A stretch of 64,000 bases of DNA from NCBI GenBank assembly GCA_030697825.1, contig JAUYOW010000146.1:5978-69977 (forward strand), written 5' to 3'. Shown here piece by piece: positions 8,267 to 64,000 of this stretch. Every line of letters begins with the position of its first letter. Within the stretch, counting starts at the first letter, position 1. The position numbers and the translations under genes are program-made. A model generated the notes under the pieces. The model was not told the DNA's origin, did no database searches, and worked only from the letters and a program-made list of their open reading frames with translations. The stretch comes from Gemmatimonadales bacterium (lineage in GTDB: Bacteria > Gemmatimonadota > Gemmatimonadetes > Gemmatimonadales > JACORV01).

Positions 8267-8301
8267 CCCTGTCCGACGCCACCGGCTAGCTTGGCTGGCC
8301 T

Positions 8302-8931: not shown

Positions 8932-8934
8932 GCG

Positions 8935-10557
8935 GTGCCACGGACCCCGAGACTGGTTCGCGTGCTGAAGCACGCGCTCGGCCAAGGGCAGGCCGGCGGC
9001 TCTTTCGCGGCCCGCGGGTTCCTGCTCTCGTGTCTCGGCCTGGCGGCGGCCGGTGGCGTGGCGATGGCCCAGTGCCCCGACGGCACGCCGCCACCCTGCC
9101 GCCGCGCCGCCCGCCCGGCGGCGACGGCCTCGGCGAACACCGTCGCGGTCCTCTACTTCGACAATCTCTCTCGTGACACGTCCGACGCTTATCTCGCCGA
9201 CGGGCTCACCGAGGAGATCACCGCGCGCCTGGGACAGGTGGGCCGCCTGGTCGTCACGTCGCACACCGCCGTGCGGCGGCTGCGGAATGCGGCGACGATG
9301 AGCACGCCGGAGATCGGCCGCGCGCTGAGCGTGAACTATCTGCTCAACGGCAGCGTGCGGCGCTCGGCGAGCCGGCTGCGGGTCACGGTGGAGCTGGTCC
9401 GCGCCTCCAGCGGCGTGCAGGTCTGGTCCAACCAGTTCGACCAGAGCCAGGCGGATCTGCTCGCCATACAGGAGGAGATCGCGGTGGCGGTGGCGGCGGG
9501 CATCGTCGGCCAGCTGCTGCCGGGCGAGCGCGCCACCCTCGAGCGCAGGCCCACCCGCAACGCTGCGGCCTACGACGCCTACCTGCGGGGAAGCCGCGCC
9601 ATCTGGGACGTGGACCCGCGCAGTACCGCGCTGGCAATCGCCGCGTTCGAGACCGCGCTCAGGCTCGATCCCGGCTTCACCGCGGCCCGAGGCCGGATAG
9701 CCTACGCCTATGGATGGGCGTTGAACTGGAACCAGCCGCTGCCCGACATCCCGGTGGAGAGCCTGCCCGCCCGGGCTCAGGCCGCCGCAGACCGGGCGCT
9801 GGCCGAGGATTCCACTTCGGCCGACGCGTGGAGCGGCATGGGGTTCGTGCTCTTCCTTCGCGACCCGCCCGACTATACCGGCGCGCTCGCGGCCATGCGC
9901 CGCGCGGTCGCGCTGGATTCCACCAACGTCTTCGTCCGCCAGAGCAACGCCGTGCTGCTGCGGCGCATGGGAGCCTTTGACGCGGCAGCGGCGGAGTATC
10001 ACCGGGCGATCGAGCTCCAACCCGGCTTGAGCCAGGTGGTCGGCGACCTCGGCTTCATCGCCTACAGCCGGCGGCGCTACCGTGAAGCGGCGGGATGGTA
10101 CGACAGCGCCCTCGCGCTGAACCAGGGGGCGTGGCAGCACCTGACATACCGTGCGCGCATCCGGCTGGAGCTGCGGGACACGGCGGGCGCCCGGCAAGAC
10201 GCCGAGGATGCGGTGCGACTGGTCGCGGTGGCCTCGCGCGCGCTGGCGTTGAGCGTGCTCGCGCAGGTCGAGGCCCGCACCGGGGACAGCGCATCCGCCC
10301 GGGCGCGGCTCGAGCCGCTGCTCGCCCCCGTCGCCGAGGGCCCGGTTTCCGTCCGGGAGGGCTACGAGCTGGCGCTGGCGCTCGTGGCGACCGGGCAGAA
10401 GGACCGCGCGCTCGACGTGCTGGAGCGGGTGCGGCCGCGCGGGGCGTGGCTCTGGTCCTACCTCGTGTTCCCCGGCTTCGACCCGATCCGCGCGGAACCG
10501 CGCTTCGTGAGGGTCTACGAGGAGTCGCGGCCGCCGGGCGCGCCGCGGATGCCATAG
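8935..10557 (+). CDS. TPR repeat protein with N-terminal TolB-like/FlgO-like domain
   Basis: The N-terminal segment TVAVLYFDNLSRDTSDAYLADGLTEEITARLGQVGRLVV..LNGSV is followed by repeated TPR-like A/Y/L-rich helices. GTG start; start uncertain. Confidence 0.7.
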   Translation: MPRTPRLVRVLKHALGQGQAGGSFAARGFLLSCLGLAAAGGVAMAQCPDGTPPPCRRAARPAATASANTVAVLYFDNLSRDTSDAYLADGLTEEITARLGQVGRLVVTSHTAVRRLRNAATMSTPEIGRALSVNYLLNGSVRRSASRLRVTVELVRASSGVQVWSNQFDQSQADLLAIQEEIAVAVAAGIVGQLLPGERATLERRPTRNAAAYDAYLRGSRAIWDVDPRSTALAIAAFETALRLDPGFTAARGRIAYAYGWALNWNQPLPDIPVESLPARAQAAADRALAEDSTSADAWSGMGFVLFLRDPPDYTGALAAMRRAVALDSTNVFVRQSNAVLLRRMGAFDAAAAEYHRAIELQPGLSQVVGDLGFIAYSRRRYREAAGWYDSALALNQGAWQHLTYRARIRLELRDTAGARQDAEDAVRLVAVASRALALSVLAQVEARTGDSASARARLEPLLAPVAEGPVSVREGYELALALVATGQKDRALDVLERVRPRGAWLWSYLVFPGFDPIRAEPRFVRVYEESRPPGAPRMP

Positions 10558-10643
10558 CGCCTTCGCCGATGCCGCCCCGCAGCCCACGACGTGATCGTCG
10601 TGCGCGTGTTGACCCGCCCAGCCGCACGCGGCTAACCTCCACC

Positions 10644-12107
10644 ATGCCGCTCCGCCTCCACAACACCCTCTCCCGCTCCGTCGAGCCGTTCACGCCGCTC
10701 GCGCCGCCCAAGGTCACGCTCTACACCTGCGGCCCCACGGTCTGGAACTATGCCCACATCGGCAACTTCCGGACCTTCGTCGTCGAGGACGTGCTGAGGC
10801 GCTATCTCGCGTACCGCAGCTTCGACGTGCTGCACGTCATGAACGTCACCGATGTGGACGACCGGACCATCAACGCCGCGAACGCCGCAGGCATGCCGCT
10901 CGTCGAACACACGGCACCGTACACCAGAGCGTTCTTCGAGGACCGCGACTACCTGCGCATCCTGCCCGCGCACCACTACCCGGCGGCCACGGGGTTCATC
11001 CCTCATATGGTCGCGCTGGCGAGCCGGCTGCTCGAGAAGGGCGTGGCATACCGGGGTGATGACGGCTCGGTGTACTTCGGGATAGACCGGTTCCCTTCGT
11101 ACGGGCGCCTCTCCCGCCTGGATACGCGCGAGATCAAGGTGGGCGCGCGCGTTTCGAGCGACGAGTACGCCAAGGAGGACGCGCGCGACTTCGTCTTGTG
11201 GAAGGCCGCGAAGCCGGCGGACGAAGCCGTGGGCGCAGCCTGGGACGCGCCGTTCGGCCGAGGGCGGCCCGGCTGGCACCTCGAGTGCTCGGCCATGTCG
11301 CAGCACTATCTGGGCGACACGCTCGACATCCACGCCGGCGGCGTGGACCTCATCTTCCCCCACCACGAGGACGAGATCGCGCAATCGGAGGCCGCGACCG
11401 GCAAGCCGTTCGCGCGGTTCTGGCTCCACGCGGAGTTCCTCACGGTAAGCGGCAGCAAGATGTCCAAGCGGTACGGCAACTTTCTCACGGCCAGAGATCT
11501 CCGCGAGAACGGGGTGGACCCGGCCGCGGTCCGCTACCTCTTCGGCCAGACGCACTACCGGAAGCAGCTCGACTGGAGCGACGCGGCGCTCGAAGGCGCT
11601 ACGGCCGGCGTGCGCCGCCTCGGCGAGTTCCGCCTGCGCCTTGCGAAGGCGCCCGCCGGCGACAGCGCCGAGTGGGATGCGTCCACGGCGACGCTCGAGC
11701 GTAGCTTCGCCGAGGCGATGGACGACGATCTCAACGTGCCGGGCGCGCTAGCGGCGGTGATGGACTTCGTGCGCGCGGGCAACGCGTTGATCGACCGCGG
11801 CGGCGGCGTCTCGACTTCAGCCGTCTCGGTGTTCGATCGCGCCACGGAAGTGCTTCAGGTCGTGCCCGCCGCTACTGAGGTCTCTCTGGGGGGCGCAGTC
11901 CAGCCGACCGGGATGGTTGAGACCTTGATCGTGCCGGCTGAGGTTCGGGAGTTGGCTGAAGCCCGCAAGGATGCCCGGGTCAAGAAGAACTGGCAGCGGG
12001 CGGACGAGCTACGCAAGCTGTTGATCGAGAAAGGCTTCGACGTTCGCGACTCGAAAGACGGCGGCTACGAACTCCGCCGAGTAACTGAGCCTCCCACCAC
12101 GACTTGA
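10644..12107 (+). CDS. cysS: cysteine--tRNA ligase
   Basis: The true start is MPLRLHNTLSR at ATG 10644, inside track ORF 10095..12107. HIGN and KMSKR class-I motifs are present, as is the WHLECS zinc site. Confidence 0.95.
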   Translation: MPLRLHNTLSRSVEPFTPLAPPKVTLYTCGPTVWNYAHIGNFRTFVVEDVLRRYLAYRSFDVLHVMNVTDVDDRTINAANAAGMPLVEHTAPYTRAFFEDRDYLRILPAHHYPAATGFIPHMVALASRLLEKGVAYRGDDGSVYFGIDRFPSYGRLSRLDTREIKVGARVSSDEYAKEDARDFVLWKAAKPADEAVGAAWDAPFGRGRPGWHLECSAMSQHYLGDTLDIHAGGVDLIFPHHEDEIAQSEAATGKPFARFWLHAEFLTVSGSKMSKRYGNFLTARDLRENGVDPAAVRYLFGQTHYRKQLDWSDAALEGATAGVRRLGEFRLRLAKAPAGDSAEWDASTATLERSFAEAMDDDLNVPGALAAVMDFVRAGNALIDRGGGVSTSAVSVFDRATEVLQVVPAATEVSLGGAVQPTGMVETLIVPAEVRELAEARKDARVKKNWQRADELRKLLIEKGFDVRDSKDGGYELRRVTEPPTTT

Positions 12108-12165: not shown

Positions 12166-12241
12166 GCTGACGTAGCTCAATCGGTAGAGCAGCTGATTTG
12201 TAATCAGCAGGTTAAGGGTTCGAGTCCCTTCGTCAGCTCCA
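12166..12241 (+). tRNA. tRNA-Thr (anticodon TGT), CCA encoded
   Basis: Cloverleaf folded by hand: acceptor gctgacg/cgtcagc, anticodon arm gctga-tttgtaa-tcagc, T arm aaggg-ttcgagt-ccctt. Confidence 0.9.
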
Positions 12242-12349
12242 GTTAGCCGGGAGGGAGCACGCAGCACCGCAGACCACGCCACCCCGCGTTTCGCGCCGCG
12301 GGGTGGTCTGTTCAGCGGACCAAAAGACGCCAGTGGGATGGGGCGCTGG

Positions 12350-12433
12350 GGTGGGGTGCCGGAGCGGTCAATCGGAGCAGACTGTAAATCTGCCGGCCTT
12401 GCGCCTACGAAGGTTCGAATCCTTCCCCCACCA
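12350..12433 (+). tRNA. tRNA-Tyr (anticodon GTA), long variable arm
   Basis: Acceptor ggtgggg/ccccacc, anticodon arm gcaga-ctgtaaa-tctgc, T arm gaagg-ttcgaat-ccttc. No encoded CCA. Confidence 0.9.
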
Positions 12434-12435
12434 CT

Positions 12436-12508
12436 GCGGGCGTAGCTCAGTTGGTAGAGCGTCAGCCTTCCAAGCTGAGGGTCGCGGGTTCGAGCCCCGT
12501 CGCCCGCT
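12436..12508 (+). tRNA. tRNA-Gly (anticodon TCC)
   Basis: Acceptor gcgggcg/cgcccgc, anticodon arm tcagc-cttccaa-gctga. Confidence 0.9.
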
Positions 12509-12509
12509 C

Positions 12510-12582
<73 letters not shown>

Positions 12583-15836: not shown

Positions 15837-20330
<4,494 letters not shown>

Positions 20331-20333
20331 CCG

Positions 20334-24608
<4,275 letters not shown>

Positions 24609-30594: not shown

Positions 30595-32691
30595 ATGGCA
30601 CGCACGGTGCAGCTCGAAAAATACCGTAACATCGGCATCATGGCCCACATCGATGCCGGGAAGACGACTACGACCGAGCGCATCCTGTACTACACCGGCC
30701 GCACCTACAAGCTGGGTGAGGTGCACGACGGCACGGCGACCATGGATTGGATGGAGCAGGAGCAGGAGCGCGGCATCACGATCACGTCCGCGGCGACCAC
30801 CGCCGAGTGGACGCGCTTTGGCGAAGAGTACCGGATCAACATCATCGACACCCCCGGCCACGTGGACTTCACGGTCGAGGTGGAGCGCTCGCTGCGGGTG
30901 CTCGACGGCGCGGTAGCCGTGTTCTGCGCGGTGGGCGGAGTCGAGCCCCAGTCGGAGACGGTCTGGCGCCAGGCCGACAAGTACGGCGTCCCGCGACTCG
31001 CGTTCGTCAACAAGATGGACCGCGTCGGCGCCGACTTCGACCAGGTGGTGGCGGAGATCCGCCAGAAGCTCGGAGCCAGGGCGTTCCCGGTTCAGTACCC
31101 GCTGGGCCAGGGCGAGCTGTTCACCGGCGTGGTGGACATCGTGCGCCGGGTCGTGATGGTGTACGACGAGGCGTCGCTCGGCCAGAAGTGGCACGAGGGC
31201 CCCGTCCCGGCGGCGCTCCAGGACCGGGTGGAGCAGTTGCGTCACGAGGTTATCGAGGCGTCGCTCGAGTTCGACGACGAGCTGCTCGAAAAGTACCTCA
31301 ACACGCGCGAGCTCTCGGAAGAAGACACCCGGCGCGCGATCCGCAAGGCGACCGTCGCCAACGGCATCGTCCCGGTCTTCTGCGGCGCGGCGTTCAAGAA
31401 CAAGGGCGTGCAGGCGTTGCTGGACGGGGTGGTGGATTTCCTGCCGAGCCCGCTGGAGATCCCGCCGATGGTGGGACACCTCCCGAACCGCACGGAGACC
31501 AAGGCGACGCGCTGCGCCAACGACGAGGAGCCGTTCGCCGCGCTGGCGTTCAAGATCATGACCGACCCGTTCGTGGGCCGGCTGACGTTCATCCGGGTCT
31601 ATTCGGGCGTCCTGAGCTCCGGGTCGTACGTCTACAACTCCACCAAGGACCGGCGCGAGCGGGTGGGCCGGCTGGTGCAGATGCACGCCAACAAGCGCGA
31701 GGAGATCGACGAGGTACGCGCGGGCGACATCGCCGCCGTCATCGGGCTCAAGGACACCAAGACCGGCGACACGCTGGCCTATGAGGACCAGGCGGTCATC
31801 CTGGAGGCGATGCGGTTCCCGAACCCGGTGATCGACGTCGCCATTGAGCCCAAGACCAAGGCGGACCAGGACAAGCTGGCGATCGCGCTCCAGAAGTTGT
31901 CCGAGGAGGACCCGACGTTCCGGGTGCACACCGATCCCGACACCGCGCAGACCATCATCTCCGGGATGGGCGAGCTGCACCTCGAGATCATCGTGGACCG
32001 GATGCGCCGGGAGTTCAAGGTGGACGCCAACGTGGGCCGGCCGCAGGTGGCCTACCGCGAGACGATCCGCCACCGAGTGACGGACATCGAGGGGAGGTTC
32101 GTCCGGCAGACGGGCGGCCGCGGCCAGTACGGGCACGTGGTCATCAACCTCGAGCCGGCCGCGCCGGGCGCGGGGTTCGTCTTCGAGGACCAGATCGTGG
32201 GCGGCTCGATCCCGCGCGAATACATCCGCCCGGTGGAGCAGGGGATCAAGGAAGCGCTCGAGAACGGCGTGCTGGCCGGATATCCCGTGGTGGACGTGAA
32301 GGTCGAGCTGACGGACGGCTCGTACCACGACGTGGATTCGAGCGAGATGGCGTTCAAGATCGCGGGCTCGATGGCCTTCAAGGAGGCCGCGCGGGCCGCG
32401 AAGCCCATCCTGCTTGAGCCGATCATGGACGTGGAAGTCGTGACGCCGAGCGAGTACCTCGGCGACGTGATGGGGGACCTCTCGAGCCGGCGGGGCCGGA
32501 TCGGCGGGATGACGCAGCGCGCTGAGGCGCAGGTCATCGGCGCCTCGGTACCGCTCTCGGAGATGTTCGGCTACTCCACCACGCTGCGCTCGATGAGCCA
32601 GGGGCGCGCGGTGTACTCGATGCAGTTCTCGCGGTACGAGGAAGTGCCGAAGGCAAAGGCCGAAGAGATCATCACCAAGGTAAAGGGTTAA
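30595..32691 (+). CDS. fusA: elongation factor G
   Basis: ..[26 protein letters not shown].. and DTPGHVDF; 698 aa. Confidence 0.98.
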
Positions 32692-32695
32692 TCCG

Positions 32696-33898
<1,203 letters not shown>

Positions 33899-52406: not shown

Positions 52407-53690
52407 ATGTTCGGTGCGGGCACGCGCTGCCTCGTCGTGGTGGGGGCGCAGTGGGGCGACGAGGGCAAGGGCAAGGTCGTGGACGCGCTGGCCGAGCACG
52501 CCGATCTCGTGGTGCGCTATCAGGGAGGCGCCAACGCGGGGCACACGGTAGACGCGCCCGACGGCGAGTTCGTGCTGCACCAGATCCCCTCCGGCATCCT
52601 GCATCAGGCGACGAAGTGCGTGATCGGCAACGGGGTCGTCCTCGATCCCGAAACGCTGTTTCACGAGATCGACGCGCTCCGCGGGCGTGGCGTGACCGTC
52701 GAGGGCCGGTTGGTGGTCAGCGACCGCGCCCACCTGGTTCTCCCTTACCACAAGCTGCTCGACGCCGAGAGCGCGCGCAGCAAGAAGATCGGCACTACGG
52801 CCCGCGGCATCGGTCCGGCGTACGAGGATAAGTACGGGCGGCGCGGTGTCCGCGTCGGAGACCTGCGGCACCCCGAGATCGTGGCCAAGCTGGTGGAGGC
52901 CGGCGTCCAGCGCGCCAACGACCTGTTGGGGCTGGCGGGGTCGGTGAAGCGCTGCCACGCGGCGGAGATCGTCGCCATGCTGGCAGGTATGGCGCCCCGG
53001 CTGCTGCCGTTCGTGTCCGACGCGGGCAGGCTCGTGACGGACACCCTGAGGGATGGCGGCAACGTCCTGCTCGAGGGCGCGCAAGGCGCTCTCCTCGACG
53101 TGGACCACGGCACCTACCCGTTCGTGACCTCGTCGAGCACCACCGCCGGCGGCGCCGCGGTGGGCGCGGGCATCGGCCCCACGGCGATCGACGCCGTGCT
53201 CGGCGTCGTCAAGGCGTACACGACGCGCGTGGGCAACGGCCCGCTCCCGACCGAGGCGGAGGTGACCGAAGGCGAAAGGCTGCGCACGCTGGGCGGCGAG
53301 TACGGCGCGACTACCGGGCGCCCGCGCCGCTGCGGCTGGTTCGACGCGATGGTGGTGCGCTACTCGGTGCGCGTGAACGGCCTCACCGGGCTCGCGGTGA
53401 CCAAGCTCGACGTCCTCGATTCGTTCGAGCAGCTGTCCGTCTGCACGCACTACCGGCTCGGCGGCGAAACGCTGGACGACCTGCCTGACAACGTCGCGGC
53501 GCTCGCGGAAGTGGAACCGGTGTATGAGCTCCTTCCCGGCTGGCGCCAGCCGACCGGCGAGGCCCGCACGCTCGCCGCCCTTCCCCGGGAGGCCCGCGCC
53601 TACCTCGACCGCCTCGAGGCGCTGGCAGGCGCCCCCATCCGCTACGTGGGCGTGGGCACCAAGCGCGAGCAGCTGATCGAAGTGCAGTGA
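52407..53690 (+). CDS. purA: adenylosuccinate synthase
   Basis: ATG at 52407 after gaggagga. ..VVGAQWGDEGKGKVVD.. and ..GGANAGHTV.. Confidence 0.96.
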   Translation: MFGAGTRCLVVVGAQWGDEGKGKVVDALAEHADLVVRYQGGANAGHTVDAPDGEFVLHQIPSGILHQATKCVIGNGVVLDPETLFHEIDALRGRGVTVEGRLVVSDRAHLVLPYHKLLDAESARSKKIGTTARGIGPAYEDKYGRRGVRVGDLRHPEIVAKLVEAGVQRANDLLGLAGSVKRCHAAEIVAMLAGMAPRLLPFVSDAGRLVTDTLRDGGNVLLEGAQGALLDVDHGTYPFVTSSSTTAGGAAVGAGIGPTAIDAVLGVVKAYTTRVGNGPLPTEAEVTEGERLRTLGGEYGATTGRPRRCGWFDAMVVRYSVRVNGLTGLAVTKLDVLDSFEQLSVCTHYRLGGETLDDLPDNVAALAEVEPVYELLPGWRQPTGEARTLAALPREARAYLDRLEALAGAPIRYVGVGTKREQLIEVQ

Positions 53691-56212
53691 GGGTGCTCTT
53701 GAAGGTGCTGTCGGGAGTCGCCGCGGTCCTCGTCGTCGTGGCCGTGGTGGTCTCGTTGGTTCTCTTCCGCTCGATACCTCCCCTGGACGGCAAAGAGTCG
53801 TTGCCGGCGCTCTGCGCGCCGGTCGAGGTGCTCTGGGACAGCCTCGGCATCCCGCACCTCACGGCAGCGTCGGACGCGGACGCGCTGAAGGCGCTCGGAT
53901 ACCTCCACGCGCGCGATCGGCTGTGGCAGATGGAGACCCTCCGCCGCACCGCCGAGGGGCGGCTGGCCGAAGTGCTGGGACCCGCCGCCCTCGGCCTCGA
54001 CCGGTTCCTGCGCTCGCTCGACATCCCGCGCGCCGCGGCCGCGAGCCTGGGCACGATAGCGCCCGAGGCCCGGGCGCTCGCCGAAGCCTACGTGGCGGGC
54101 GTGAACCAGTGGATCTCCCACCACACGCGGCCACTTCCTCTCGAGTTCCAGCTCTTGCGCTTCGCCCCGGAGCCGTGGACGATGCAGCAGGTGGTCGAGG
54201 TGGCACGGGTGATGTCGTGGGACCTGGTGAGCGCGCGGCTCGAGCTGAACCTCGCGCGGGCGGCGGCGCGCCTGGGCCCGGAACGGGCGCGCGACCTGGT
54301 CCCGCTGTACCCGGACAGCGCGCCGGTCATCCTGGCGCCGGGGACTGCTACGTGGAAAGACGGGCGGCAGACGCGCAGACGCGCAGACGCGCAGTCGGTG
54401 GGCGGGCGGCAGTATTCGGTTGAACGGCAGTGGCTCCCGAGCCACCTGCTCGCCGAGCGGGAGGTCCCGGAGATACCGCCGTTGGCGGCGGAAGTTCTCG
54501 ACGCGGTGACCATGACGCGGGCGTCGAACTCCTGGGTGATCGGATCGTCGCGCTCGCGCTCGGGCAAGCCCATCCTGGCCAACGACCCGCACCTCCGGCT
54601 CAGCGCGCCTTCGCTGTGGTACCTCGCGGTCATCGAGAGCCCTCGCCTGCACGTCGCCGGCGCCACGATCCCCGGCCTGCCGGCCGTGATCATCGGGCAC
54701 AACCGGCGCATCGCCTGGGGGCTCACCAACGGGTCGGTGGACGACGTGGACTACGTGATCGAGCGGCTCTCGGCGGACTCCTCTCGCGTGCTCACGCCTG
54801 ACGGGTGGGCGCCGGTGGAGGTGGTCCGGGACTCGATCCGGGTTCGCGGTCGTCAGGCGGTCCCGTTCACGCTGCGGCGCACGGCGCACGGCCCGATCGT
54901 GGACGAGGCCGCGCCCGACTCGGGCTGGACCCACGCGCCGTCGGACAGCGCCGCGCCCGTGACCGTGCTCGCGATGCGCTGGAACGGGCAGGACCCGAGC
55001 GACGAGCTCACGGCGCTGATCGGCGTGGACCGCGCGGGTTCGTGGACCGACTTCCTCGCCGCCGTCTCCGGGTTCAAATCGCCCGAGCAGAACTGGATCT
55101 ACGCCGACGTGGACGGCAACATCGGGTACACCGCGAGCGGCGCGGTGCCGGTTCGGCGGTCGGGGGTCGGTCTCCTCCCGACACCGGGCTGGACCGACGA
55201 GGGGAGGTGGGAGCGGTACCTGGACTTCGACGAGCTGCCCCGCGCGTTCAATCCGCCCGATGGTTTCATCGTCACCGCGAACAACCGGGTGATAGGCCCC
55301 GAGTACCCGCACTTCCTGGCGCAGGACTGGGACCTCGGCTACCGGGCGGCACGAATCCGGGAGATGCTCGTACCGGGCGGTCCTTTCACCGCCCTGGACG
55401 TTGGACGCATGCAGCTGGACACGGTGGACGTCTTCGCGCGATGGGCCAGGCGCCTAGCCGCGGACGCCGCGGCGACCGCGGGCCGGCAGGACCTGGCTGA
55501 GCGGCTGCGCGCGTGGGACGGCACGATGGGATCCGACCGGACGGAGCCGACGCTCTTCTACGTCTGGTACCGGGATCTCCAGCGCCTTACGTACGAGGAC
55601 GAACTCGGTGGCTATGCGCCTTCGGGGCCACTGCACCGGTGGTTGCGCGCGGGCGGAAGCCCGTGGTTCGACGACATCAGGACGCCCGAACGCGAGGACC
55701 TGGCGGCGCTTTCCGCCCGCGCGATGCGCGAAGCGCTGCCGGTAGCCGAGGGTGTGAAATGGGGCGACGCGCACGTCACCGTGTCACAACACGCCCTCGG
55801 CGGCTTCGGGCCTCTCAACCGCCTGCTCGGCCTGAACCTCGGGCCGGCGCCGCGCGCCGGGTCGCTCTACACCGTGGATGTCGCCGACTTCGGTTCCTTC
55901 GCGCCGCCGTTCGTGAACACCCATGCGGCATCGTTCCGGCAGGTCGTGGATCTGGCGGACGTGGAGGCCGGGCGGATGATCGCGACCACGGGACAGTCGG
56001 GTAACCCGCTGGCGCGGCGATATCGCGACCAGAGCCGGCGGTGGTGGCGGGGGGAGTTGTGGGAGGTGCCGCTGGACCGCGAGCGGGTGGCGGCCGTCGG
56101 CACCCTGCATCTGACACCGCTGTCGCTATCCGCCCTATCCGCTCTATCCGTCTATGGTGTCACTCCCTCCGCGGCGCGCTCCACCAGCTGCGTCTCGACT
56201 AGCCGGCGGTAG
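53687..56212 (+). CDS. penicillin acylase family Ntn-hydrolase (possible acyl-homoserine-lactone/beta-lactam acylase)
   Basis: Signal/TM N-terminus, ..GYLHARDRLWQME.., and the nucleophile context ..TRASNSWVIG.. The last ~20 codons cross a 9-bp tandem repeat and overlap the convergent ABC gene, so the true C-terminus is uncertain. Confidence 0.85.
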   Translation: MRVLLKVLSGVAAVLVVVAVVVSLVLFRSIPPLDGKESLPALCAPVEVLWDSLGIPHLTAASDADALKALGYLHARDRLWQMETLRRTAEGRLAEVLGPAALGLDRFLRSLDIPRAAAASLGTIAPEARALAEAYVAGVNQWISHHTRPLPLEFQLLRFAPEPWTMQQVVEVARVMSWDLVSARLELNLARAAARLGPERARDLVPLYPDSAPVILAPGTATWKDGRQTRRRADAQSVGGRQYSVERQWLPSHLLAEREVPEIPPLAAEVLDAVTMTRASNSWVIGSSRSRSGKPILANDPHLRLSAPSLWYLAVIESPRLHVAGATIPGLPAVIIGHNRRIAWGLTNGSVDDVDYVIERLSADSSRVLTPDGWAPVEVVRDSIRVRGRQAVPFTLRRTAHGPIVDEAAPDSGWTHAPSDSAAPVTVLAMRWNGQDPSDELTALIGVDRAGSWTDFLAAVSGFKSPEQNWIYADVDGNIGYTASGAVPVRRSGVGLLPTPGWTDEGRWERYLDFDELPRAFNPPDGFIVTANNRVIGPEYPHFLAQDWDLGYRAARIREMLVPGGPFTALDVGRMQLDTVDVFARWARRLAADAAATAGRQDLAERLRAWDGTMGSDRTEPTLFYVWYRDLQRLTYEDELGGYAPSGPLHRWLRAGGSPWFDDIRTPEREDLAALSARAMREALPVAEGVKWGDAHVTVSQHALGGFGPLNRLLGLNLGPAPRAGSLYTVDVADFGSFAPPFVNTHAASFRQVVDLADVEAGRMIATTGQSGNPLARRYRDQSRRWWRGELWEVPLDRERVAAVGTLHLTPLSLSALSALSVYGVTPSAARSTSCVSTSRR
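56126..56157 (+). repeat. 3.5 copies of a 9-bp tandem repeat (CTATCCGNC)
   Basis: ctatcc occurs at 56126, 56135 and 56144, and ctatgg at 56152. The array sits at the junction of convergent genes, and the last unit contains the ABC-transporter stop codon. Confidence 0.7.
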
Positions 56213-57921
56213 ACCGCGCTGGTCTCGAGCAGTTCCGCATGCCGGCCGGCGGCCGCAATGCCGCCGCCGTCGAGCACGGCGATCCGGTCGGCCGCGAGCA
56301 CGGTGCTGAGCCGGTGGGCGATGATCAGGGTGATGCCGTCCGGGCGCCCGTAGCGCAAGCCTTCGGCGACCGACCGCTCGGTGGGGCTGTCGAGCGCGCT
56401 GGTCGCTTCGTCGAGAATGAGGATCTGAGGCCGCGTCACGATCGCCCGCGCCAGAGCGAGACGTTGCCTCTGGCCGGCCGAGAGCTTCCCGCCGCGCGGT
56501 CCGACGCGGGTGCGGTAGCCGTCGGGTAGGGAGTGAATGAGCTCGTCCAGTCGGGCCGTCTGCGCGGCCTTCGCGACCGCGGGCGACGGGAGGTCACGGC
56601 CCAGCGAGATGTTCCAGTCGACCGGCTCGTCGAAGACGAAGCAGTCCTCGAACACGACGCCCAGGTTCCGCGCGAGCGACGCCCGCGCCACGCGATCCAG
56701 CGGCACACCGTCTACCAGAATCCTGCCCGACTGCGGGGCCCGCAGGCGGACGAGCAGCTGCGCCAGCGTGCTCTTGCCCGACCCGCTGGCTCCCACCACC
56801 GCGACCACCTCACCGCGCCGGAGCTCGAGATCCAGGCCCCGGAGCACCGGCTCGCCCCCGGCATACCGGAACCCAACCTGCTCCACGCTGATCCGCTCCA
56901 CCGGTGAATCCACCGCTTCGGACCCGTCGCGCTCGCCCGACGCGCGATCGCCCAGGAAGGCGAAGACGTTGAGCGTCGCACCCTCCTGCTCGGCCAGCGC
57001 CGACGCCGCCTCGGTGATGGCGCCGAACTGACCCTGGAGGCGGCGCAGCACGAACCCGAGGGCGAGGACCAGCGGCAGATTCCCGAACAGTTGATCCTGC
57101 CAAACGTTGAGCGCCACCAGCAGCGCGCCCAGGAGCACCACCGCGTAGAGCACTTCGGTCGCGGGCTTCACCGCGCTGCGCCAGCGGTGCAGGCCCATCG
57201 CTTCGCGATAGAGCGTCTGGTTCGTGCGGCGGTGGAGCGCCAACCGCTCCCGGCCGACGTCGTAGGCCTGGATCACGTGGAGCCCAGCGGCATCGTCGAG
57301 CACCAGCCGGCTCGAGTCCTCTTCCGCACGCACCATGAGCACCGAGTAGGCTCGAATCCGGCGGCCCGCGTAGGCGATGACACCGAAGCCGATCGCTCCG
57401 AGGACCGCCGCGGCCAGGCTCAGCCGCCACGACAGCAGCACGAGGGCCCCGCCGTAGACCGCCAGCAGCAGCGCGGCGTTCAGCAGCGCCACGAGCGCGG
57501 AGACCCCGGCGACCACCCGCTCGGTCTGCATCGAGAACAGGTTCACGAGCCTCCCCCCGCCGAGGACGGCCAGGTCCGCGTAGCGGGAGGCGTAGAACGC
57601 CTCCGCCAGTGACTCCCGGAGACGAAGGAGCACGCGCAGCTGGAGCCGGGCCGAGAGGACGCCGTTCAGGTAGCAAGCCGCGGCGCGGAGCAGGACGAGC
57701 GCGCCGATCGCGAGGACGATGAGCTGGAGTCTCTGCTCCGATCCTCGCTCGAAGGACTCGAGGAAGGGAACGAGCAGCGTGACCGAGGCCCCTTCGAGCA
57801 GGACGAGCGCCAGCGAAGTGCCGGCGACCGTCGCCGCGGGCCGCTTGAAGCCCCGGAGCGAGGTGATCACCTCTCGAACGTCTTTCCACCGGGAAGCCAG
57901 ACGCTGCGGCAGTCTCATCAC
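56152..57921 (-). CDS. ABC transporter, fused permease/ATPase (lasso peptide exporter candidate, McjD-like role)
   Basis: Six-TM exporter domain. Walker A GASGSGKST, signature LSAGQRQRLALARA, Walker B ILILDEATSALD. The start overlaps the stop of the upstream kinase gene. Confidence 0.9.
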   Translation of the reverse strand: MMRLPQRLASRWKDVREVITSLRGFKRPAATVAGTSLALVLLEGASVTLLVPFLESFERGSEQRLQLIVLAIGALVLLRAAACYLNGVLSARLQLRVLLRLRESLAEAFYASRYADLAVLGGGRLVNLFSMQTERVVAGVSALVALLNAALLLAVYGGALVLLSWRLSLAAAVLGAIGFGVIAYAGRRIRAYSVLMVRAEEDSSRLVLDDAAGLHVIQAYDVGRERLALHRRTNQTLYREAMGLHRWRSAVKPATEVLYAVVLLGALLVALNVWQDQLFGNLPLVLALGFVLRRLQGQFGAITEAASALAEQEGATLNVFAFLGDRASGERDGSEAVDSPVERISVEQVGFRYAGGEPVLRGLDLELRRGEVVAVVGASGSGKSTLAQLLVRLRAPQSGRILVDGVPLDRVARASLARNLGVVFEDCFVFDEPVDWNISLGRDLPSPAVAKAAQTARLDELIHSLPDGYRTRVGPRGGKLSAGQRQRLALARAIVTRPQILILDEATSALDSPTERSVAEGLRYGRPDGITLIIAHRLSTVLAADRIAVLDGGGIAAAGRHAELLETSAVYRRLVETQLVERAAEGVTP

Positions 57922-58865
57922 GAAAGGTCGGCCAGCACGGCCTCGCAGACGGCGGGGAGCAGGGACAGGCTCCGAGGGTAGCTCAGGCGCTTGACCGGCA
58001 CCGCGGCCACCAGCCGGCTGGCGAACGCGAACTGGTTAGCGAGACGGTCCCGGTCCACCACGATCGTATTGAACGAATTCCGGATCACCTCGAGAAACGC
58101 GTCGCGGGCAGAGAGCCGTTCCAGCTCAATGCGCGCTGCCGGGCGGCGACCCGCGGGCGTCGGCTCGGAGAGGACGTAGAGCGCCCGGAGCGGCGCCCGG
58201 CGACGGGACAGCTGCCCGGCGGCGAGGGGGAAAATCTGCTTGGACGTGCCGTTGTTCAACGGTGTCCCGCCCCGCTCAACGCCCAGCACTCGTCGCGAGA
58301 CGCTCGGGAAGAGCTTGAGCCGGGGCATCCCCGGGTGGACCGCATAGCCCGAGGCCGTCGGCTCGAGCGCCATCAGATCGTCGGTGAGGATCGGGAACCC
58401 CAGGCGCAGGAACGCCGCTCCCAGGGTGGATTTCCCGTACCCGCAGTTCCCGAGAAACGCGATCGCCTCTCCGTCGATGACGACGACCGTCCCGTGCAGC
58501 GGCTCCACGCCGAATAGGAGCAGCGAGAACGACAGCACCTGGCCGAGGAGGTACGTGCTGAAGGATTCCGGGGTGGCTCGCTTAAGCTGATGGTACCTGA
58601 TGTCGCGGCCGTCCGCCGAGACCAGGAACTCGAACAGCCCGGTCCACCGCAGGTACGTCGAACCGGTGCGGAGACGGCGGCAGTAGAACCAGTCGCGGCT
58701 CGGCCGGTCGGTGGTTTCCCGCCGAGCAATTCCCTCGAAGCGGGCCGGTTCCCCGACCCGGAGCCTCACATCCGGTCGCCGCGCCCGCTGAACCCGAGGG
58801 CACGGGAGGACGAGAGGGCTCACGAGCGAGAGCCCGTAGAGCCGATAATGCGCTGTCGACCTCAA
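57918..58865 (-). CDS. HPr kinase-like serine kinase (lasso-peptide tailoring kinase candidate)
   Basis: P-loop FLGNCGYGKSTLGAAF followed by PILTDDL, as in the HprK/P C-terminal domain. The TTG start overlaps the precursor stop (TTGA). Confidence 0.75.
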   Translation of the reverse strand: MRSTAHYRLYGLSLVSPLVLPCPRVQRARRPDVRLRVGEPARFEGIARRETTDRPSRDWFYCRRLRTGSTYLRWTGLFEFLVSADGRDIRYHQLKRATPESFSTYLLGQVLSFSLLLFGVEPLHGTVVVIDGEAIAFLGNCGYGKSTLGAAFLRLGFPILTDDLMALEPTASGYAVHPGMPRLKLFPSVSRRVLGVERGGTPLNNGTSKQIFPLAAGQLSRRRAPLRALYVLSEPTPAGRRPAARIELERLSARDAFLEVIRNSFNTIVVDRDRLANQFAFASRLVAAVPVKRLSYPRSLSLLPAVCEAVLADLS

Positions 58866-59038
58866 GCGTTAGTGCCGCTGGCCTTGGTCTTCGGCTTCCC
58901 ACCACCACCGTCGGCCGCGCTGCCGCCCTTAACTCTTGTCAGCGCGCTGATGTCGCCATGCACGGTAAGTTCCGGTGAACGATACGGCTTCTTTTTCCCG
59001 GTGCTCCGCTGGGACTGGCCTTTCTTCCCCTTGTTCAT
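58862..59038 (-). CDS. lasso peptide precursor (58 aa), not in the ORF track
   Basis: Codon-by-codon hand translation gives MNKGKKGQSQRSTGKKKPYRSPELTVHGDISALTRVKGGSAADGGGGKPKTKASGTNA. Residues 19-35 match the lasso leader motif YxxPxLx3Gx5Tx. ATGA overlap with the cyclase stop and TTGA overlap with the kinase start. Confidence 0.8.
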   Translation of the reverse strand: MNKGKKGQSQRSTGKKKPYRSPELTVHGDISALTRVKGGSAADGGGGKPKTKASGTNA

Positions 59039-60993
59039 ACAGTGCTCTCCGAGAGAGGGGTTGGGGGCCGGGCCGGAATTGCGCGCTCCCCGCCCAAGAA
59101 TACCTCAAGCCACACTTCCAAGGCAAACAGATCGGTGAGATCCCAGGTGCCGAGGCAGTCCGGACCCTCGAGCTCCGCGGCGAGGCCGGGAAGCGCGGCC
59201 GCCAGCCGACGCTCGTCAAGGTACCCCAGGCGAGCCGCCAACGAGCCTTGCGACAGCCGAGCGCAGACCTGCCCCAGGTCCCGGCCAATCCCACTGTTCG
59301 CGGCGGCCGTGAAGTCTGCCTTCCACGTTCGAGCGCGCAGCGGCTCGGGGAGGATGCCCCCCATCGCTTCCCGCAGCAGCGCCCGGGGAACGCCGTCCCG
59401 GTTCTGGATTTCTCCCGGCGCAGCCATGAGGAACGCGATGAGGTCACGATCCAGGAACGGGAAGGCCGCGTCCAGCCCGTGCAGCGCGGCGATCTTGTTG
59501 TTCCACTCCATGCAGTGCACGTGATACTTGGACCGGGCTTCCAGATACAGCGATCTCGCGTGGACGGAGTGGAAGCCGTCTCCGAACCACACGGGGCGGT
59601 TTGCGAACCTGAGCGCCCGGCGGCGGAAGGAATCCGAGAACCACGGCCTGGGTCGCTCCGGGCGGGAGATCATTCGGCGCAGCCACTTGAACAGCGGGGC
59701 CGCCGCACGCGGGACATAGTGCCGGGCGACATCGAGCACGAGCCGCCGCCTGAGCACCAGCGTCTCTTCCGGCCCGAAGAACCGCTGGTAGGTCCGGGTG
59801 TGTCGCTGGATCTGTCCGAAATCCAGCCGCCGGAAGAGATCCGCCAGATACGCGGCCGAAAACAGCATCTGGTCGCCCCAGTGCCCCGAGAGCAGCACCC
59901 GCGCGCCGGCCTCTCGGGCCCGAACATGTACTTCGCGGGTCACTCCCCAGAAGTAGTCCATAAAGGGCGCCTCGATGGCCCGCACCTGGTCCTCGGCGCC
60001 CCGGACCACACCGAGCAGAGGCTCGATGGGAATTCGCCCGACCGATACGCCGTACGCCTGCTCGATCTCACGCAGAAAACGCTGCTCGTCGGCCGCGGTG
60101 CCCTCGGCGCCCACGTAGGATATCCCGATCACGCCGGGAGCCGCGGCCCGTCCAGCGCGCCGAAGGGTTTCCGCCTGGCAGAAGATGGAGGATGAATCCA
60201 GGCCCCCGCTCACCGAAACGGCCACCGGGTGAACGGCACGCGTCCGACGCCGCACCGCTTCCGCGAACCGCTCGCGGAATGCTTCGGCGTATTCGCCGAA
60301 CGAGTTCAGGCGGAGCGTGCGGCCCCGGTCGAAATCCCAGTACCGCCGGGCCATCAACCGTTCGGGCGTCACTACGACGAGATGCGCCGGCACGACCGCG
60401 GAGATGCCCGTGAAGCAGGTGATGTCCTGGCGATCGACCGGCCGCGAAGCCAGGAGCAGGTAGTCGGCGAGGCCCTCGTCGTCGGGACGCGCCGGTATCT
60501 CCGGGTGCGCCAGCAACGCCTTGATTTCGGAGGCGAACGCACCCAGCCGGTCGCTGCGGAAGTAGTAGAGGGGGCGAACTCCGATCGGGTCGCGCACCAG
60601 TAGCAGGCGTCGCTGTCGCTCGTCGAAGACCGCCAGCGCGAAATCGCCGTTCAAGCGTCCGGGGAACCGCTCCCCCCAAGCCTCGTACGCCGCGAGCACG
60701 CACGCGGCGTCGCTGACCGTCGGGGGCAGTCGCAGCGCGCCAAGCAGCTCGTCGCGATTGTCGAGCCGGCCGTCCATGACCAGCATGGCGCCGCTGCGAC
60801 CCACGGGCGGCTGGACCTCGCCGGTCTCCTCGGGGGTCACCCACAGGTGCTGCCACGCGAAGCCAGCCGGGCCGGCCACCCGCCGGCCCTCGCCGTCGGG
60901 CCCGCGGTGGCGGAGCGCGGCACTCATGCGGGCCAGCAGCGCATCCTCCGCCGGCCGCGCATCGAGGTTGAACACTCCGACGATTCCGCTCAT
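59035..60993 (-). CDS. asparagine synthetase-like lasso peptide cyclase (C protein)
   Basis: The N-terminus is MSGIVG, with Ser replacing the glutaminase Cys of AsnB. PP-loop SVSGGLDSSS. 652 aa. Cluster context. Confidence 0.85.
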   Translation of the reverse strand: MSGIVGVFNLDARPAEDALLARMSAALRHRGPDGEGRRVAGPAGFAWQHLWVTPEETGEVQPPVGRSGAMLVMDGRLDNRDELLGALRLPPTVSDAACVLAAYEAWGERFPGRLNGDFALAVFDERQRRLLLVRDPIGVRPLYYFRSDRLGAFASEIKALLAHPEIPARPDDEGLADYLLLASRPVDRQDITCFTGISAVVPAHLVVVTPERLMARRYWDFDRGRTLRLNSFGEYAEAFRERFAEAVRRRTRAVHPVAVSVSGGLDSSSIFCQAETLRRAGRAAAPGVIGISYVGAEGTAADEQRFLREIEQAYGVSVGRIPIEPLLGVVRGAEDQVRAIEAPFMDYFWGVTREVHVRAREAGARVLLSGHWGDQMLFSAAYLADLFRRLDFGQIQRHTRTYQRFFGPEETLVLRRRLVLDVARHYVPRAAAPLFKWLRRMISRPERPRPWFSDSFRRRALRFANRPVWFGDGFHSVHARSLYLEARSKYHVHCMEWNNKIAALHGLDAAFPFLDRDLIAFLMAAPGEIQNRDGVPRALLREAMGGILPEPLRARTWKADFTAAANSGIGRDLGQVCARLSQGSLAARLGYLDERRLAAALPGLAAELEGPDCLGTWDLTDLFALEVWLEVFLGGERAIPARPPTPLSESTV

Positions 60994-61009
60994 AGATTAC
61001 ATTATAACA
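60994..61009 (-). promoter_or_regulatory. extended -10 promoter (TGTTATAAT) placed to give a leaderless cyclase mRNA; AT-rich divergent control region
   Basis: The minus strand reads tgt-TATAAT-gtaatct-ATG, so the -10 box ends 7 nt before the ATG at 60993. The surrounding 60994-61014 is conspicuously AT-rich in a GC-rich genome. A TATAAC on the + strand (61003-61008) faces the PqqD-like gene. Confidence 0.4.
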
Positions 61010-61039
61010 GATACTCCGACGCGCGAGCCAAGAGCCTCT

Positions 61040-61351
61040 ATGACTGCCCGCAACATTCCGGACTCGGCCACCGTCGTCGCGGCCGGGGACCTGCTCGCCA
61101 GCGAATTCGGCGCCGAGCTGGTGATCCTCAACCTGCGGGACGGCGTGTACTACGGGATGGAGGACGTCGGCGCGCGCGTCTGGAGCCTCTTGCAACGACC
61201 CGTCACGGTCTCCGCCATCCGCGAGACGCTGGTCGCGGAATACGACGTCGAGCCGGCCCGCTGCGGGCGGGACGTGCGGGCACTGCTCCAGGATCTGGCC
61301 GCGCGCGCCCTGATCGAGGTCCGGGAGAGCGGTGATGGCGCTGTGGCGTAA
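61040..61351 (+). CDS. PqqD-family RiPP recognition element (lasso B1 protein)
   Basis: ATG at 61040 inside track ORF 60758..61351. ..GAELVILNLRDGVYYGMEDVGARVWSLLQRPVTVSAIRETLVAEYDV.. is the typical PqqD pattern. Confidence 0.85.
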   Translation: MTARNIPDSATVVAAGDLLASEFGAELVILNLRDGVYYGMEDVGARVWSLLQRPVTVSAIRETLVAEYDVEPARCGRDVRALLQDLAARALIEVRESGDGAVA

Positions 61352-61799
61352 GCTTCGCACCCTGAGCGCCGCCGACCGCCGCCTCCTCGCGGAAGCGGGG
61401 CTGCTGCTCGTGCTCACCCGGATCGGGCTCTGGCTCCTTCCCTACCCGAAGCTCCGGCGAGTGCTGGACCGGGCCCACCCTTCGGGGCGGGAACCGCCCC
61501 GCGAGTTCCCCAATCGCGTCTCCTGGGCGGTCACCGCCGTCGCGCGCAGGCTTCCGGGAATGACCTGCCTGGTTCAGAGTCTCACCGCACACGCCCTGCT
61601 GCACCGCCGGGGATATCGCGCCGATCTGCGCATCGGCGTCCATGAGCGCGCCAGCCACGCCGCGAGACCCCTCGAGGCCCATGCCTGGGTCGAGTGTGAG
61701 GGCCGCGTCGTGGTGGGGAAGGTCCAGAACCTGGCCGACTACACGGTTCTGACCCCGACCGCGCCGCCAGCTTCTCCCGCCACGCCAGACCCCTCATGA
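61335..61799 (+). CDS. transglutaminase-like lasso leader peptidase (B2 protein)
   Basis: Catalytic Cys context PGMTCLVQSLTAHALL and His context LEAHAWVECEG. It overlaps the B1 3' end (GTG 61332 is an alternative start). Confidence 0.85.
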   Translation: MALWRKLRTLSAADRRLLAEAGLLLVLTRIGLWLLPYPKLRRVLDRAHPSGREPPREFPNRVSWAVTAVARRLPGMTCLVQSLTAHALLHRRGYRADLRIGVHERASHAARPLEAHAWVECEGRVVVGKVQNLADYTVLTPTAPPASPATPDPS

Positions 61800-62935
61800 C
61801 CGCGGTGCTGCCCGCACACCTGGCCGACGGTCTCGCGGCGGTGCTCCGCGGCGAACGGGTCTCCTGGCGCTCGCTCGGCGTGGAACCGGCCGATCTGCTC
61901 GCGGTCTGTGCCGAGGAAGATCTCACCGGCCTGGTGCATCATCAGCTGGGCAACCTACCGGAAATCGGCTGGCCGCAGAGCCTCCGCGACAGCCTGACGC
62001 GCGAAGCCCGAGCGGGAGCGACGCGGGAGCTCCTCCGTCGCAGAGAACTGGTCACGGTGCTCGACGCCCTCGCGGCGCGAGATATCCACCCGATCCTGCT
62101 GAAGGGCACGCCGCTCGCGTACACGGTCTACGAGGCCCCGAGCCTCCGGCCCCGCAGCGACACCGACCTTCTGATATCGCGGGAGCAGACCGATACCGTC
62201 CGCCGCGTCATGACTGGGATCGGCTACTCGGCCACGAACTACTGCGACGGCGAGTTCCTGTTTTGCCAGTTTGAGCTTGGAAAAGAGGACGCGTTCGGCG
62301 TCGGTCACGCCTTCGATTTCCACTGGAAGATCAGCACCCAGTCCGCCTTCGCCGATCTCCTCAGCTATGACGAGCTCTCAGGTGACGCGACGCCCGTCCC
62401 CGCGCTCGGCGCCCACGCGCGCACCGCCGGAGCCGTCCACGCGCTGCTCCTGGCCTGCGTTCATCCGGTGATGCACCACCGAAACGTCGAGCGGCTCGTC
62501 TGGATCTACGACATCCACCTGCTCGCTGCACGGCTCTCGCGCGCCGAGTTCGACCGCCTCGCGGAGCTGGCAGTGCGCAAGGGCGTCGCCGCGATCTGTG
62601 CGCACCAGTTGGCGCTCGCCCGCTCGCGGCTCGGCACCCCCGTGCCCGACGAGGTGATCGCCGCCCTTGCCGCGCCCGGGCGTGAGGCCGAGCGATCGGC
62701 TTCCTACCTGGAGCCTGAGCGGCGGTGGAACGACGAGCTCCTGTCGAATGTCCGGGGATTGCCCCGCTGGACCGATCGCCTCCGCCTGTTGAAGGAAGTC
62801 GCGTTTCCCGCGCCAGGCTACATGCTCCGGGCCTACGGGTTGGACGGAGCCGCCTTCGGAAGCGCCCTGCTCCCCGCCCTCTACGTCCACCGCGGCGTGC
62901 GGGGCATCTGGAAAGTGTTGCGCAACCGCAAATAG
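61796..62935 (+). CDS. uncharacterised nucleotidyltransferase family protein (NTP_transf_5-like)
   Basis: ..PILLKGTPLAYTVYEAPSLRPRSDTDLLISREQTDTVRRVMTGIGY.. matches my memory of this family. ATGA overlap with B2. Confidence 0.7.
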   Translation: MTAVLPAHLADGLAAVLRGERVSWRSLGVEPADLLAVCAEEDLTGLVHHQLGNLPEIGWPQSLRDSLTREARAGATRELLRRRELVTVLDALAARDIHPILLKGTPLAYTVYEAPSLRPRSDTDLLISREQTDTVRRVMTGIGYSATNYCDGEFLFCQFELGKEDAFGVGHAFDFHWKISTQSAFADLLSYDELSGDATPVPALGAHARTAGAVHALLLACVHPVMHHRNVERLVWIYDIHLLAARLSRAEFDRLAELAVRKGVAAICAHQLALARSRLGTPVPDEVIAALAAPGREAERSASYLEPERRWNDELLSNVRGLPRWTDRLRLLKEVAFPAPGYMLRAYGLDGAAFGSALLPALYVHRGVRGIWKVLRNRK

Positions 62936-63109
62936 CCCTGCCCGGCGAGCCCGCTCGCCGACCCGGTCGATTGCCGCCGCGACCGTGACAAAACCCGCTA
63001 TTCCCGGTCATAGAGGCGATGGGCATGCGATCGTGTCTTTCGGGCTGATCCTCGGCGAACGTCCTTGGCCCGAATAGTTGGAACGGCACCAGTGGAGAAA
63101 CTCCGAATC

Positions 63110-63132
63110 GGCGCCGGTTCAGCGCCGGCGCC
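63110..63132. terminator. GC hairpin downstream of the BY-kinase gene
   Basis: 8-bp stem ggcgccgg / ccggcgcc with a 7-nt loop, 8 nt beyond the stop at 63140-63142. Confidence 0.35.
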
Positions 63133-63139
63133 CGCCGTG

Positions 63140-64000
63140 CTAGAAGAGGTGGGCGATCCGCTCGCGGAGGGCCGACAGCGGCCCGCGGCCCGTGGGCTGG
63201 TCCTTGCGGTAGTAGTAGTTGTAGTACTGGTCGCGCGTCTGCTGCACGCCGTTCAAGACCGAGCCGGCGACGCGGGCCTGGACGCGGCGCAACTGGCCGA
63301 GCGCGCGCTGGGCGGCGACCTCCTCCGTCTCGCCGGAGCGCAGGACCAGGATGACGGCGTCGGCCGAGGCGCCGAGCACGGCCGCGTCGGTCACGGCGAG
63401 CGTGGGCGGCAAGTCGAAGATCACCGTGTCATACTGGGTGCGCAGTTGCTCCAGGAGGCGGTGCATCGCCGCCGAGCCGAGCAGCTCCGACGGGTTCGGC
63501 GGCAGCGTGCCGGCCGGCAGGATATCGAGCTTCGGGATCACGTTGGGCCTGATGGCCTCGCGCAGCTGCGCGTTGCCGACCAGCACGTCCGTGAGCCCCG
63601 GCTCCTGCACCAGGTTGAAGGCGCGGTGAATCTGGGGACGGCGCAGGTCCGCGTCCACCAGGAGCGTCGTGGTGCCTTGCTGCGCGAGCGTGACCGCCAG
63701 GTTCGCCGCGGTCGTGCTCTTTCCCTCGCCCGGTCCCGGGCTGGTGGCACAGATGAGCTGTAGCGCCCGCTGTTCGGCATTCACGAAGGTGACGTTGGTG
63801 CGGAGCGCCCGGTAAGCCTCGCTGGACGGATCGTCGGGGCTGGCCAGCGACACCAGGTGGATCGCGCCTCGGCGTCGACCGTCCTTGCGGAGGCCACCGG
63901 CCGAGCGTGTCTCGAGCGGGATCAGGCCGAGGACCGGTATCTCCAGCGCGCGCTCGACGTCCGCCGCGGTCTTGATCGTCTGGTCCAGGTACTCGAGGAA
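63140..64000 (-). CDS. polysaccharide-biosynthesis tyrosine autokinase (BY-kinase / Wzc C-terminal domain), partial; N-terminal part lies beyond the right window edge
   Basis: Walker A SPGPGEGKST, Walker A' LLVDADLRRP, Walker B VIFDLPP, C-terminal Tyr cluster DQYYNYYYRKD. The frame stays open upstream of the track's GTG (63853) to position 64000 (..FLEYLDQTIKTAADVERALEIPVLGLIP..). Confidence 0.9.
   Translation of the reverse strand, partial: FLEYLDQTIKTAADVERALEIPVLGLIPLETRSAGGLRKDGRRRGAIHLVSLASPDDPSSEAYRALRTNVTFVNAEQRALQLICATSPGPGEGKSTTAANLAVTLAQQGTTTLLVDADLRRPQIHRAFNLVQEPGLTDVLVGNAQLREAIRPNVIPKLDILPAGTLPPNPSELLGSAAMHRLLEQLRTQYDTVIFDLPPTLAVTDAAVLGASADAVILVLRSGETEEVAAQRALGQLRRVQARVAGSVLNGVQQTRDQYYNYYYRKDQPTGRGPLSALRERIAHLF

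Follow-up and report, generated by a model that had tools for sequence, protein, structure and literature searches.

Which gene encodes the substrate of the lasso peptide cluster at this locus, and which residue of that substrate might the cluster's kinase modify? The stretch of DNA analyzed here (64 kb, hereafter the window) carries lasso genes in the order C-A-K-D on the minus strand, with B1-B2-N divergent on the plus strand. The lasso cyclase (C, 652 aa, 59035..60993, minus strand) matches Pfam Asn_synthase (5.8e-39) and GATase_7 and scores 353.8 bits against the NF033535 lasso cyclase model, below the cutoff of 525. An HPrK/PEPCK-fold peptide kinase (K, 315 aa, 57918..58865, minus strand) is followed by an ABC exporter (D, 589 aa, 56152..57921, minus strand; Pfam ABC_membrane and ABC_tran), which overlaps the kinase stop by 4 nt. 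The divergent genes encode B1, a PqqD-type RRE (103 aa, 61040..61351, plus strand; Pfam PqqD 1.4e-18; 68 bits against NF033536, cutoff 80; 25% identity to BsfB1, E 8e-12), B2, a transglutaminase-like leader peptidase (155 aa, 61332..61799, plus strand; Pfam Transglut_core3 5.2e-26; 105.5 bits against NF033537 lasso_biosyn_B2, cutoff 33), and N, an NTP_transf_5 nucleotidyltransferase-like protein (379 aa, 61796..62935, plus strand; Pfam PF14907 6.8e-38), which is found at the same position in the homologous loci L001, L003, and L004. The first-pass annotation had proposed that a 58-codon ORF between C and K encodes the lasso precursor, and this interpretation is supported by the presence of the RRE, B2, cyclase, exporter, kinase, and NTP_transf_5 partners. 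The ORF sits between C and K with 4-nt overlaps, while B1 and B2 are divergent and 2 kb away. Judged from its sequence and its relatives, it is very probably the structural (A) gene of a split-B lasso cluster for which a full pathway can be proposed.

Only 46 bp separate the start codon of C from that of B1 (60993-61040; 47 bp in L001), and no sigma-70-like promoter was found in this gap. The two operon promoters must overlap each other or lie within coding sequence. A promoter and terminator scan of 55800-63200 gave no sigma-70-like sites, three terminator-like hairpins, as chance expects, and no attenuator downstream of A; neither the Rfam nor the tRNA scan matched anything within or close to the cluster. 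Facing the ABC exporter in convergent orientation is a penicillin amidase family gene (53687-56212, plus strand; Pfam E 7.7e-208). We considered it as a cluster gene, but it adjoins the cluster in L001, L004, and L005 and is absent from L003, and so it is probably a conserved neighbor outside the cluster. At the other end, the cluster is followed by a P-loop AAA_31/CbiA/ParA-type ORF (63140-63853, minus strand). The L001 gene at the corresponding position has the same Pfam domains and encodes a 788-aa Wzc-like protein, so the window gene is probably longer than this and may pass the window end. Elsewhere in the window are a tRNA Thr-Tyr-Gly-Thr cluster, rpoB, rpoC, fusA, and tuf (12166-12582, 15837-24608, and 30595-33898). 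This core-gene context places the lasso cluster on the chromosome, about 22 kb from the translation/transcription gene block.

The precursor ORF (58862..59038, minus strand) comprises 58 codons plus TGA, and its product, MNKGKKGQSQRSTGKKKPYRSPELTVHGDISALTRVKGGSAADGGGGKPKTKASGTNA, is identical to the translation reported in the first-pass annotation. Both junctions described there are also present: the ATG (59038-59036) overlaps the cyclase TGA (59037-59035) as ATGA, with three bases shared, and the precursor TGA (58864-58862) overlaps the kinase TTG (58865-58863), the earliest start codon available to that ORF, as TTGA. A Shine-Dalgarno-like GGAGAG (59045..59050, minus strand) lies 6 nt upstream of the ATG, within the 3' end of the cyclase gene. 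The identical hexamer lies ahead of the orthologous start in L001 (two copies) and in L004, and the start codon is preceded by GGAGAGG in L003 and by GGAGGGAGAG in L008. GC content by codon position is 0.53/0.58/0.71. Among distant precursor pairs, third-position and synonymous changes are in excess; for instance, the window and L007 precursors differ at 15/15/32 sites (first/second/third codon position), and 20 codons are changed synonymously. Three long ORFs overlap this region (58929..59447, minus strand; 58590..59138, plus strand; 58582..58908, minus strand); we rejected them as high-GC artifacts because they are out of frame with, or antisense to, C, A, and K. The ORF had been called hidden, which holds only for the ORF track used in that first reading, since homologues have already been called as hypothetical proteins by JGI and other gene callers. 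Size cutoffs routinely miss short precursor ORFs, and RODEO-type tools were made for finding them.

The leader peptide, M1-R35 (58934..59038, minus strand), carries the motif YxxPxLx3Gx5Tx exactly as claimed, with Y19, P22, L24, G28, and T34 in place and R35, V36, and D43 where they had been positioned. Y19, P22, and L24 make up the predicted RRE-binding part of the leader (nt 58967-58984, minus strand), and T34 (nt 58937-58939, minus strand) is at position -2, ahead of the predicted cleavage after R35. In a six-frame translation of the 64 kb window, the full motif occurs once, compared to 0.023 occurrences expected per window from 300 second-order Markov simulations. This single match falls within the lasso cluster, and the whole window contains no second full-motif precursor candidate in any of the six frames. 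Four extra matches to the relaxed pattern PxLx3Gx5Tx (21992, 51209, 39717, and 40046) were set aside, as they all lie outside the cluster and chance expects 3.9. Among curated NCBIfam models, the precursor passes NF033521 lasso_leader_L3 (20.3 bits, cutoff 19) and reaches 29.1 bits (E 7e-7) against NF033528 lasso_cyano, below the cutoff of 33. The aligned segment is precursor residues 16-40 for both models; for NF033528, only model positions 2-26 of 35, the leader-proximal part, are aligned, and the window core differs from that of the cyanobacterial family. Of the 15 aligned family sequences, all match NF033528 and 13 match NF033521.

A database search with the precursor peptide yielded 14 homologues, 48-58 aa in length and with E values of 1.6e-6 or better, which are 54 to 93% identical to the query. 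The first-pass annotation had suggested an alignment with small ORFs from homologous clusters, and in the resulting 15-sequence alignment its Y/P/L/G/T positions and the Asp are invariant; altogether, K17, P18, Y19, R20, P22, L24, V26, G28, L33, T34, and D43 are invariant, and P49 and T51 are nearly so. The contigs of the homologues are syntenic with the window, comprising purA, penicillin amidase, D, K, A, C, then B1, B2, and N. In orthologous clusters, the cyclase-kinase gap likewise holds the small ORF; its absence there, or loss of the motif positions, had been named as grounds for abandoning the precursor reading. A small gene is called between C and K in L001, L002, L004, and L006, with 4-nt overlaps in the latter three. 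When one genome per species was scanned for the pattern, family members turned up in Gemmatimonadales (L007, the closest), Methylomirabilota, Nitrospirae, Acidobacteriota, and gammaproteobacterial MAGs. The C-A-K order recurs in L007, a Gemmatimonadales MAG, and in about 30 metagenome loci; the metagenome scan gave 36 further loci, in most of which the peptide gene is preceded by C and followed by K. When a profile was run against 1.84 billion cluster representatives (50% identity clusters), 1499 matched at E <= 0.001, 37 of them at E <= 1e-10. From the best 150 of these 1499, we took the short matches with YxxPxL as a set of 130 distant representatives, in which the leader positions are nearly invariant: Gly at Y+9 is present in 130/130 and Thr at -2 in 122/130.

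Several loci differ in gene copy number or content. In L001 and L002 (JGI Ga0480581_000985 and Ga0480571_000467; 5597-11406), the cyclase gene is duplicated (5597-7555 and 8343-10301), and there are four precursor-like ORFs, which start at 7552, about 7775, 8001, and 10298. Of these, the second copy has a GTG start only and the changes P18S and E23G, and may therefore be decaying. Two tandem diverged precursor genes occupy the cyclase-kinase gap in L018 (3001-3367), L019 (520-886), and L023 (440-809), with C-termini of ...MSIFNK for the first copy and ...NGG[HN]A for the second. The more distant cluster L003 (6517-13568) is without an adjacent ABC exporter; downstream of its kinase are genes for a methyltransferase and several glycosyltransferases, along with a second NTP_transf_5 gene. 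This glycosyltransferase and NTP_transf_5 content may be relevant to the sugar modification proposed below.

The predicted 23-residue core, VKGGSAADGGGGKPKTKASGTNA (58865..58933, minus strand), begins with V36 as core residue 1. D43 (nt 58910-58912, minus strand) is the sole acidic residue after R35, as previously noted, and at core position 8 it falls within the known 7-9 range of ring sizes; it is the predicted isopeptide acceptor. Cleavage after R35 and an 8-residue V36-D43 ring, both predicted from sequence, agree with both family alignment schemes. The dehydrated core has a computed monoisotopic [M+H]+ of 1998.036 and [M+2H]2+ of 999.522; the values calculated for its modified forms are 2078.003 (+P), 2157.969 (+2P), 2240.055 (+P+Hex), and 2402.108 (+P+2Hex). 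There are no aromatic or Arg plug residues in the core, and its four Lys are the sole large side chains; therefore, a stably threaded topology is not assured. The core is Gly/Lys-rich and basic, unlike the acidic core of paeninodin. Some members of the family are extended, their leader LT and xKGGxxxD ring module being 2-6 residues further apart (L032 and L033, 2977-3135; L039, 2677-2832; L009, 2191-2349), and their first acidic residue is at position 10-14 counted from T(-2). This is incompatible with a 7-9 residue ring, so these four members must be cleaved without Thr at -2 or read in another register.

The kinase start must be the TTG that overlaps the precursor stop, because the N-terminus YRLYGLSL.SPL.LPCPR is conserved in orthologues upstream of the shorter gene-caller starts. 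L001 and L004 have GTG at this position. Shorter kinase models (244-283 aa), produced by gene callers on homologous contigs, were rejected since the 30-70 residues upstream are conserved at the protein level. Domain searches (Pfam/NCBIfam) give the 315-aa product a weak HPr-kinase match, and it shares 28% identity with BsfK over 188 aa (E 9e-15), with the H...GxxGxGKS...DD motif aligned. Across 25 kinase homologues, H124, G139, G144, K145, S146, D162, and D163 are invariant. A profile of the homologues has HPr kinase/phosphorylase 1jb1 as its best PDB match (E 2.3e-6). The AlphaFold (AF2) model (pLDDT 89.9, pTM 0.90) retrieves ATP-dependent PEP carboxykinases (PEPCK; E 5e-9) and HPrK/P (E 5e-7) with Foldseek. 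The kinase has at least 768 homologues, several of which are labeled as Gemmatimonadetes MAG proteins.

The nearest known systems combine a lasso cluster with such a kinase. The bsf cluster of Bradymonas sediminis FA350 (PMC10368454) consists of the same genes (A, B1, B2, C, D, K, and N), and its kinase, B1, and B2 are homologous to those of the window. BsfA resembles the window peptide in its YxxPxL leader, Arg at -1, Asp at core position 8, and a C-terminus other than Ser. However, the core sequences are unrelated, and BsfA has Ile at -2, Gly1, and the phosphosite Ser3, while the window peptide has Thr at -2, Val1, and Gly3. The Ile/Val at -2 and the Ser/Thr at core position 3 that mark the BsfA type are thus replaced, by T34, which is invariant in the alignment, and by Gly38; with Gly at core position 3, the bsf phosphosite does not exist in the window peptide. 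The psm cluster (PMC6993621) has this gene set too, and the order psmC, psmA, psmK matches as well. As described in PMC9266682 and PMC6993621, paeninodin (PadeA/PadeK) and pseudomycoidin (PsmA/PsmK/PsmN), both from Firmicutes, share with the window cluster a split B1/B2 and an HPrK-like kinase, which acts on the linear precursor. These papers describe a strictly conserved C-terminal Ser as the phosphosite and rings of Ala1-Asp9 or Ala1-Glu9, whereas the window peptide ends in Ala58 and has a predicted Val1-Asp8 ring, and the window is of Gemmatimonadota type rather than from Firmicutes. Tested against the paeninodin/pseudomycoidin type, the cluster has the HPrK-like kinase with its catalytic His-Lys-Asp-Asp motif (H124, K145, D162, D163), and its peptide has no C-terminal Ser. 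Because the defining substrate features of both phosphorylated subtypes fail, we file the window peptide under neither, although sequence comparison supports its membership in the already known kinase/NTase-tailored split-B lasso peptides.

Could the ORF be a chance, untranslated reading frame in the short cyclase-kinase spacer? Short ORFs are abundant in DNA of 68% GC, and the GC3 of the precursor (0.71) is below the 0.83-0.89 of the neighboring genes, a point against the precursor reading that is due in part to its Lys/Gly-rich composition. Core residue 1 is a second such point, given that Val is unlike the Gly or Ala of characterized cores. Outside the cores compared here, most lasso cores begin with Gly, Ala, Ser, or Cys. 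The residue is Gly in BsfA (PMC10368454) and Ala in pseudomycoidin (PMC6993621), as it is in paeninodin (PMC9266682, PMC6993621). Across the family, the position varies, with Ala in 55, Gly in 23, Val in 13, and Thr in 10 of the 130 distant representatives. Against a chance ORF, conservation of the peptide, motif, Shine-Dalgarno sequence, both gene overlaps, and position extends to loci in Methylomirabilota and Nitrospirae MAGs, the motif expectation is low and a curated HMM is passed, and discounting the ORF would leave an otherwise complete cluster without a substrate gene. We consider a chance ORF extremely unlikely, as this reading is already contradicted by the comparative sequence data. 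If the ORF is a true precursor, its leader/core boundary might still be off by one, such that K37 is residue 1 of a 7-residue ring or R35 is residue 1 of a 9-residue ring. The spacing from T34 to the Asp is not constant across the family: in P0004, L001_10298, and L009, the Asp is one residue closer to the nearest upstream Thr (just before the ring module), and in L032, L033, and L039, 5-6 additional residues separate the leader LT from the xKGGxxxD module. In addition, the Lys at Asp-6 shows stronger conservation than residue 36. Ring size or Thr position must therefore vary within the family. In the window peptide, however, V36 comes first whether T(-2) or an 8-residue ring is held constant, the first acidic residue is at core position 8 from T(-2) in 39/51 distinct family peptides and 92/130 distant representatives, and experiments have established T(-2) as part of what is recognized (PMC10368454). 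A shifted boundary is improbable, and we retain V36 as residue 1.

The remaining question is the kinase target. The lasso kinases PadeK, ThcoK, SyanK, and PsmK modify a C-terminal Ser (PMC9266682, PMC6993621), BsfK phosphorylates Ser3, and every characterized lasso kinase has the linear precursor as its substrate (PMC9266682, PMC10368454). In the window peptide, both of these positions are without a hydroxyl (C-terminal Ala58 and Gly38 at core position 3). The same tendency is seen in the family, where core position 3 is mostly Gly, Lys, or Ala, and peptides ending in Ser make up 0/51 of the distinct close family and 12/130 of the distant representatives. T51 (core Thr16; nt 58886-58888, minus strand) belongs to a KPxT[K/R] motif, and P-x-[ST]-[KR] is present in 38/51 distinct family peptides and 97/130 distant representatives; in L012 and L013, short contigs on which a kinase match is absent, the KPxT[K/R]-type motif is missing. 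With a conserved Thr in this motif and the known sites replaced by Ala and Gly, T51 is the best candidate phosphosite and, judged by residue conservation, the most likely kinase target. We tentatively propose that phosphorylation of T51 represents a third lasso-kinase regiochemistry, in which phospho-Thr, possibly hexosylated, could serve as the steric plug for a Gly/Lys-rich, aromatic-free tail in the Val1-Asp8 ring, within a very large, Gemmatimonadota-centered, uncharacterized family. The precursor could also be real and the kinase not act on T51, with S40, S54, or T56 as the target instead, or the mature peptide as substrate (e.g., in self-immunity). Regiochemistry does differ among known lasso kinases, between C-terminal Ser and Ser3, core position 5 is often Ser/Thr, and in many members the TK is followed by an xSG/xTG. 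Yet S40, S54, and T56 are unconserved, and the short members end two residues past the Thr-Lys/Arg of the tail motif and so are without them; the linear precursors used by known lasso kinases likewise argue against a mature substrate. This makes a target other than T51 somewhat unlikely, and T51 remains our candidate.

Based on lasso biochemistry as summarized in PMC10368454 and PMC9266682, a pathway can be proposed. The PqqD-type B1 would bind Y19, P22, and L24 of the leader, and the HPrK-like kinase would phosphorylate the still-linear precursor, probably aided by B1, as BsfK is stimulated by BsfB1 (PMC10368454). B2 would then cut after R35, reading T34 at -2, and the cyclase would adenylate D43 and join it to the alpha-amine of V36, giving an 8-residue macrolactam with a 15-residue tail. 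In pseudomycoidin biosynthesis, the nucleotidyltransferase-like protein PsmN, itself uncharacterized, is needed to place a hexose onto the phosphate, and the phospho-hexose has been proposed as a possible lock of the threaded fold (PMC6993621). The NTP_transf_5 protein may add a hexose to the phosphate as PsmN does, and the lock idea could apply to the window peptide too. The ABC transporter would export the mature product.

The precursor gene itself will be no surprise to RiPP specialists, but it is a useful lead, as it supplies the missing substrate gene for an otherwise complete lasso cluster. With the substrate gene identified, the product becomes predictable and searchable by mass. Lasso clusters of Gemmatimonadota have been counted by genome mining (PMC11316326), and we found no described Gemmatimonadota lasso product in the literature searched. 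The precursor family is large in environmental data, and it joins an HPrK-like kinase and a PsmN-like protein to precursors that have neither known phosphosite. This combination makes the family well suited for testing site selection by lasso kinases, and also for testing whether a phospho-glycosyl group can stand in for bulky plug residues.
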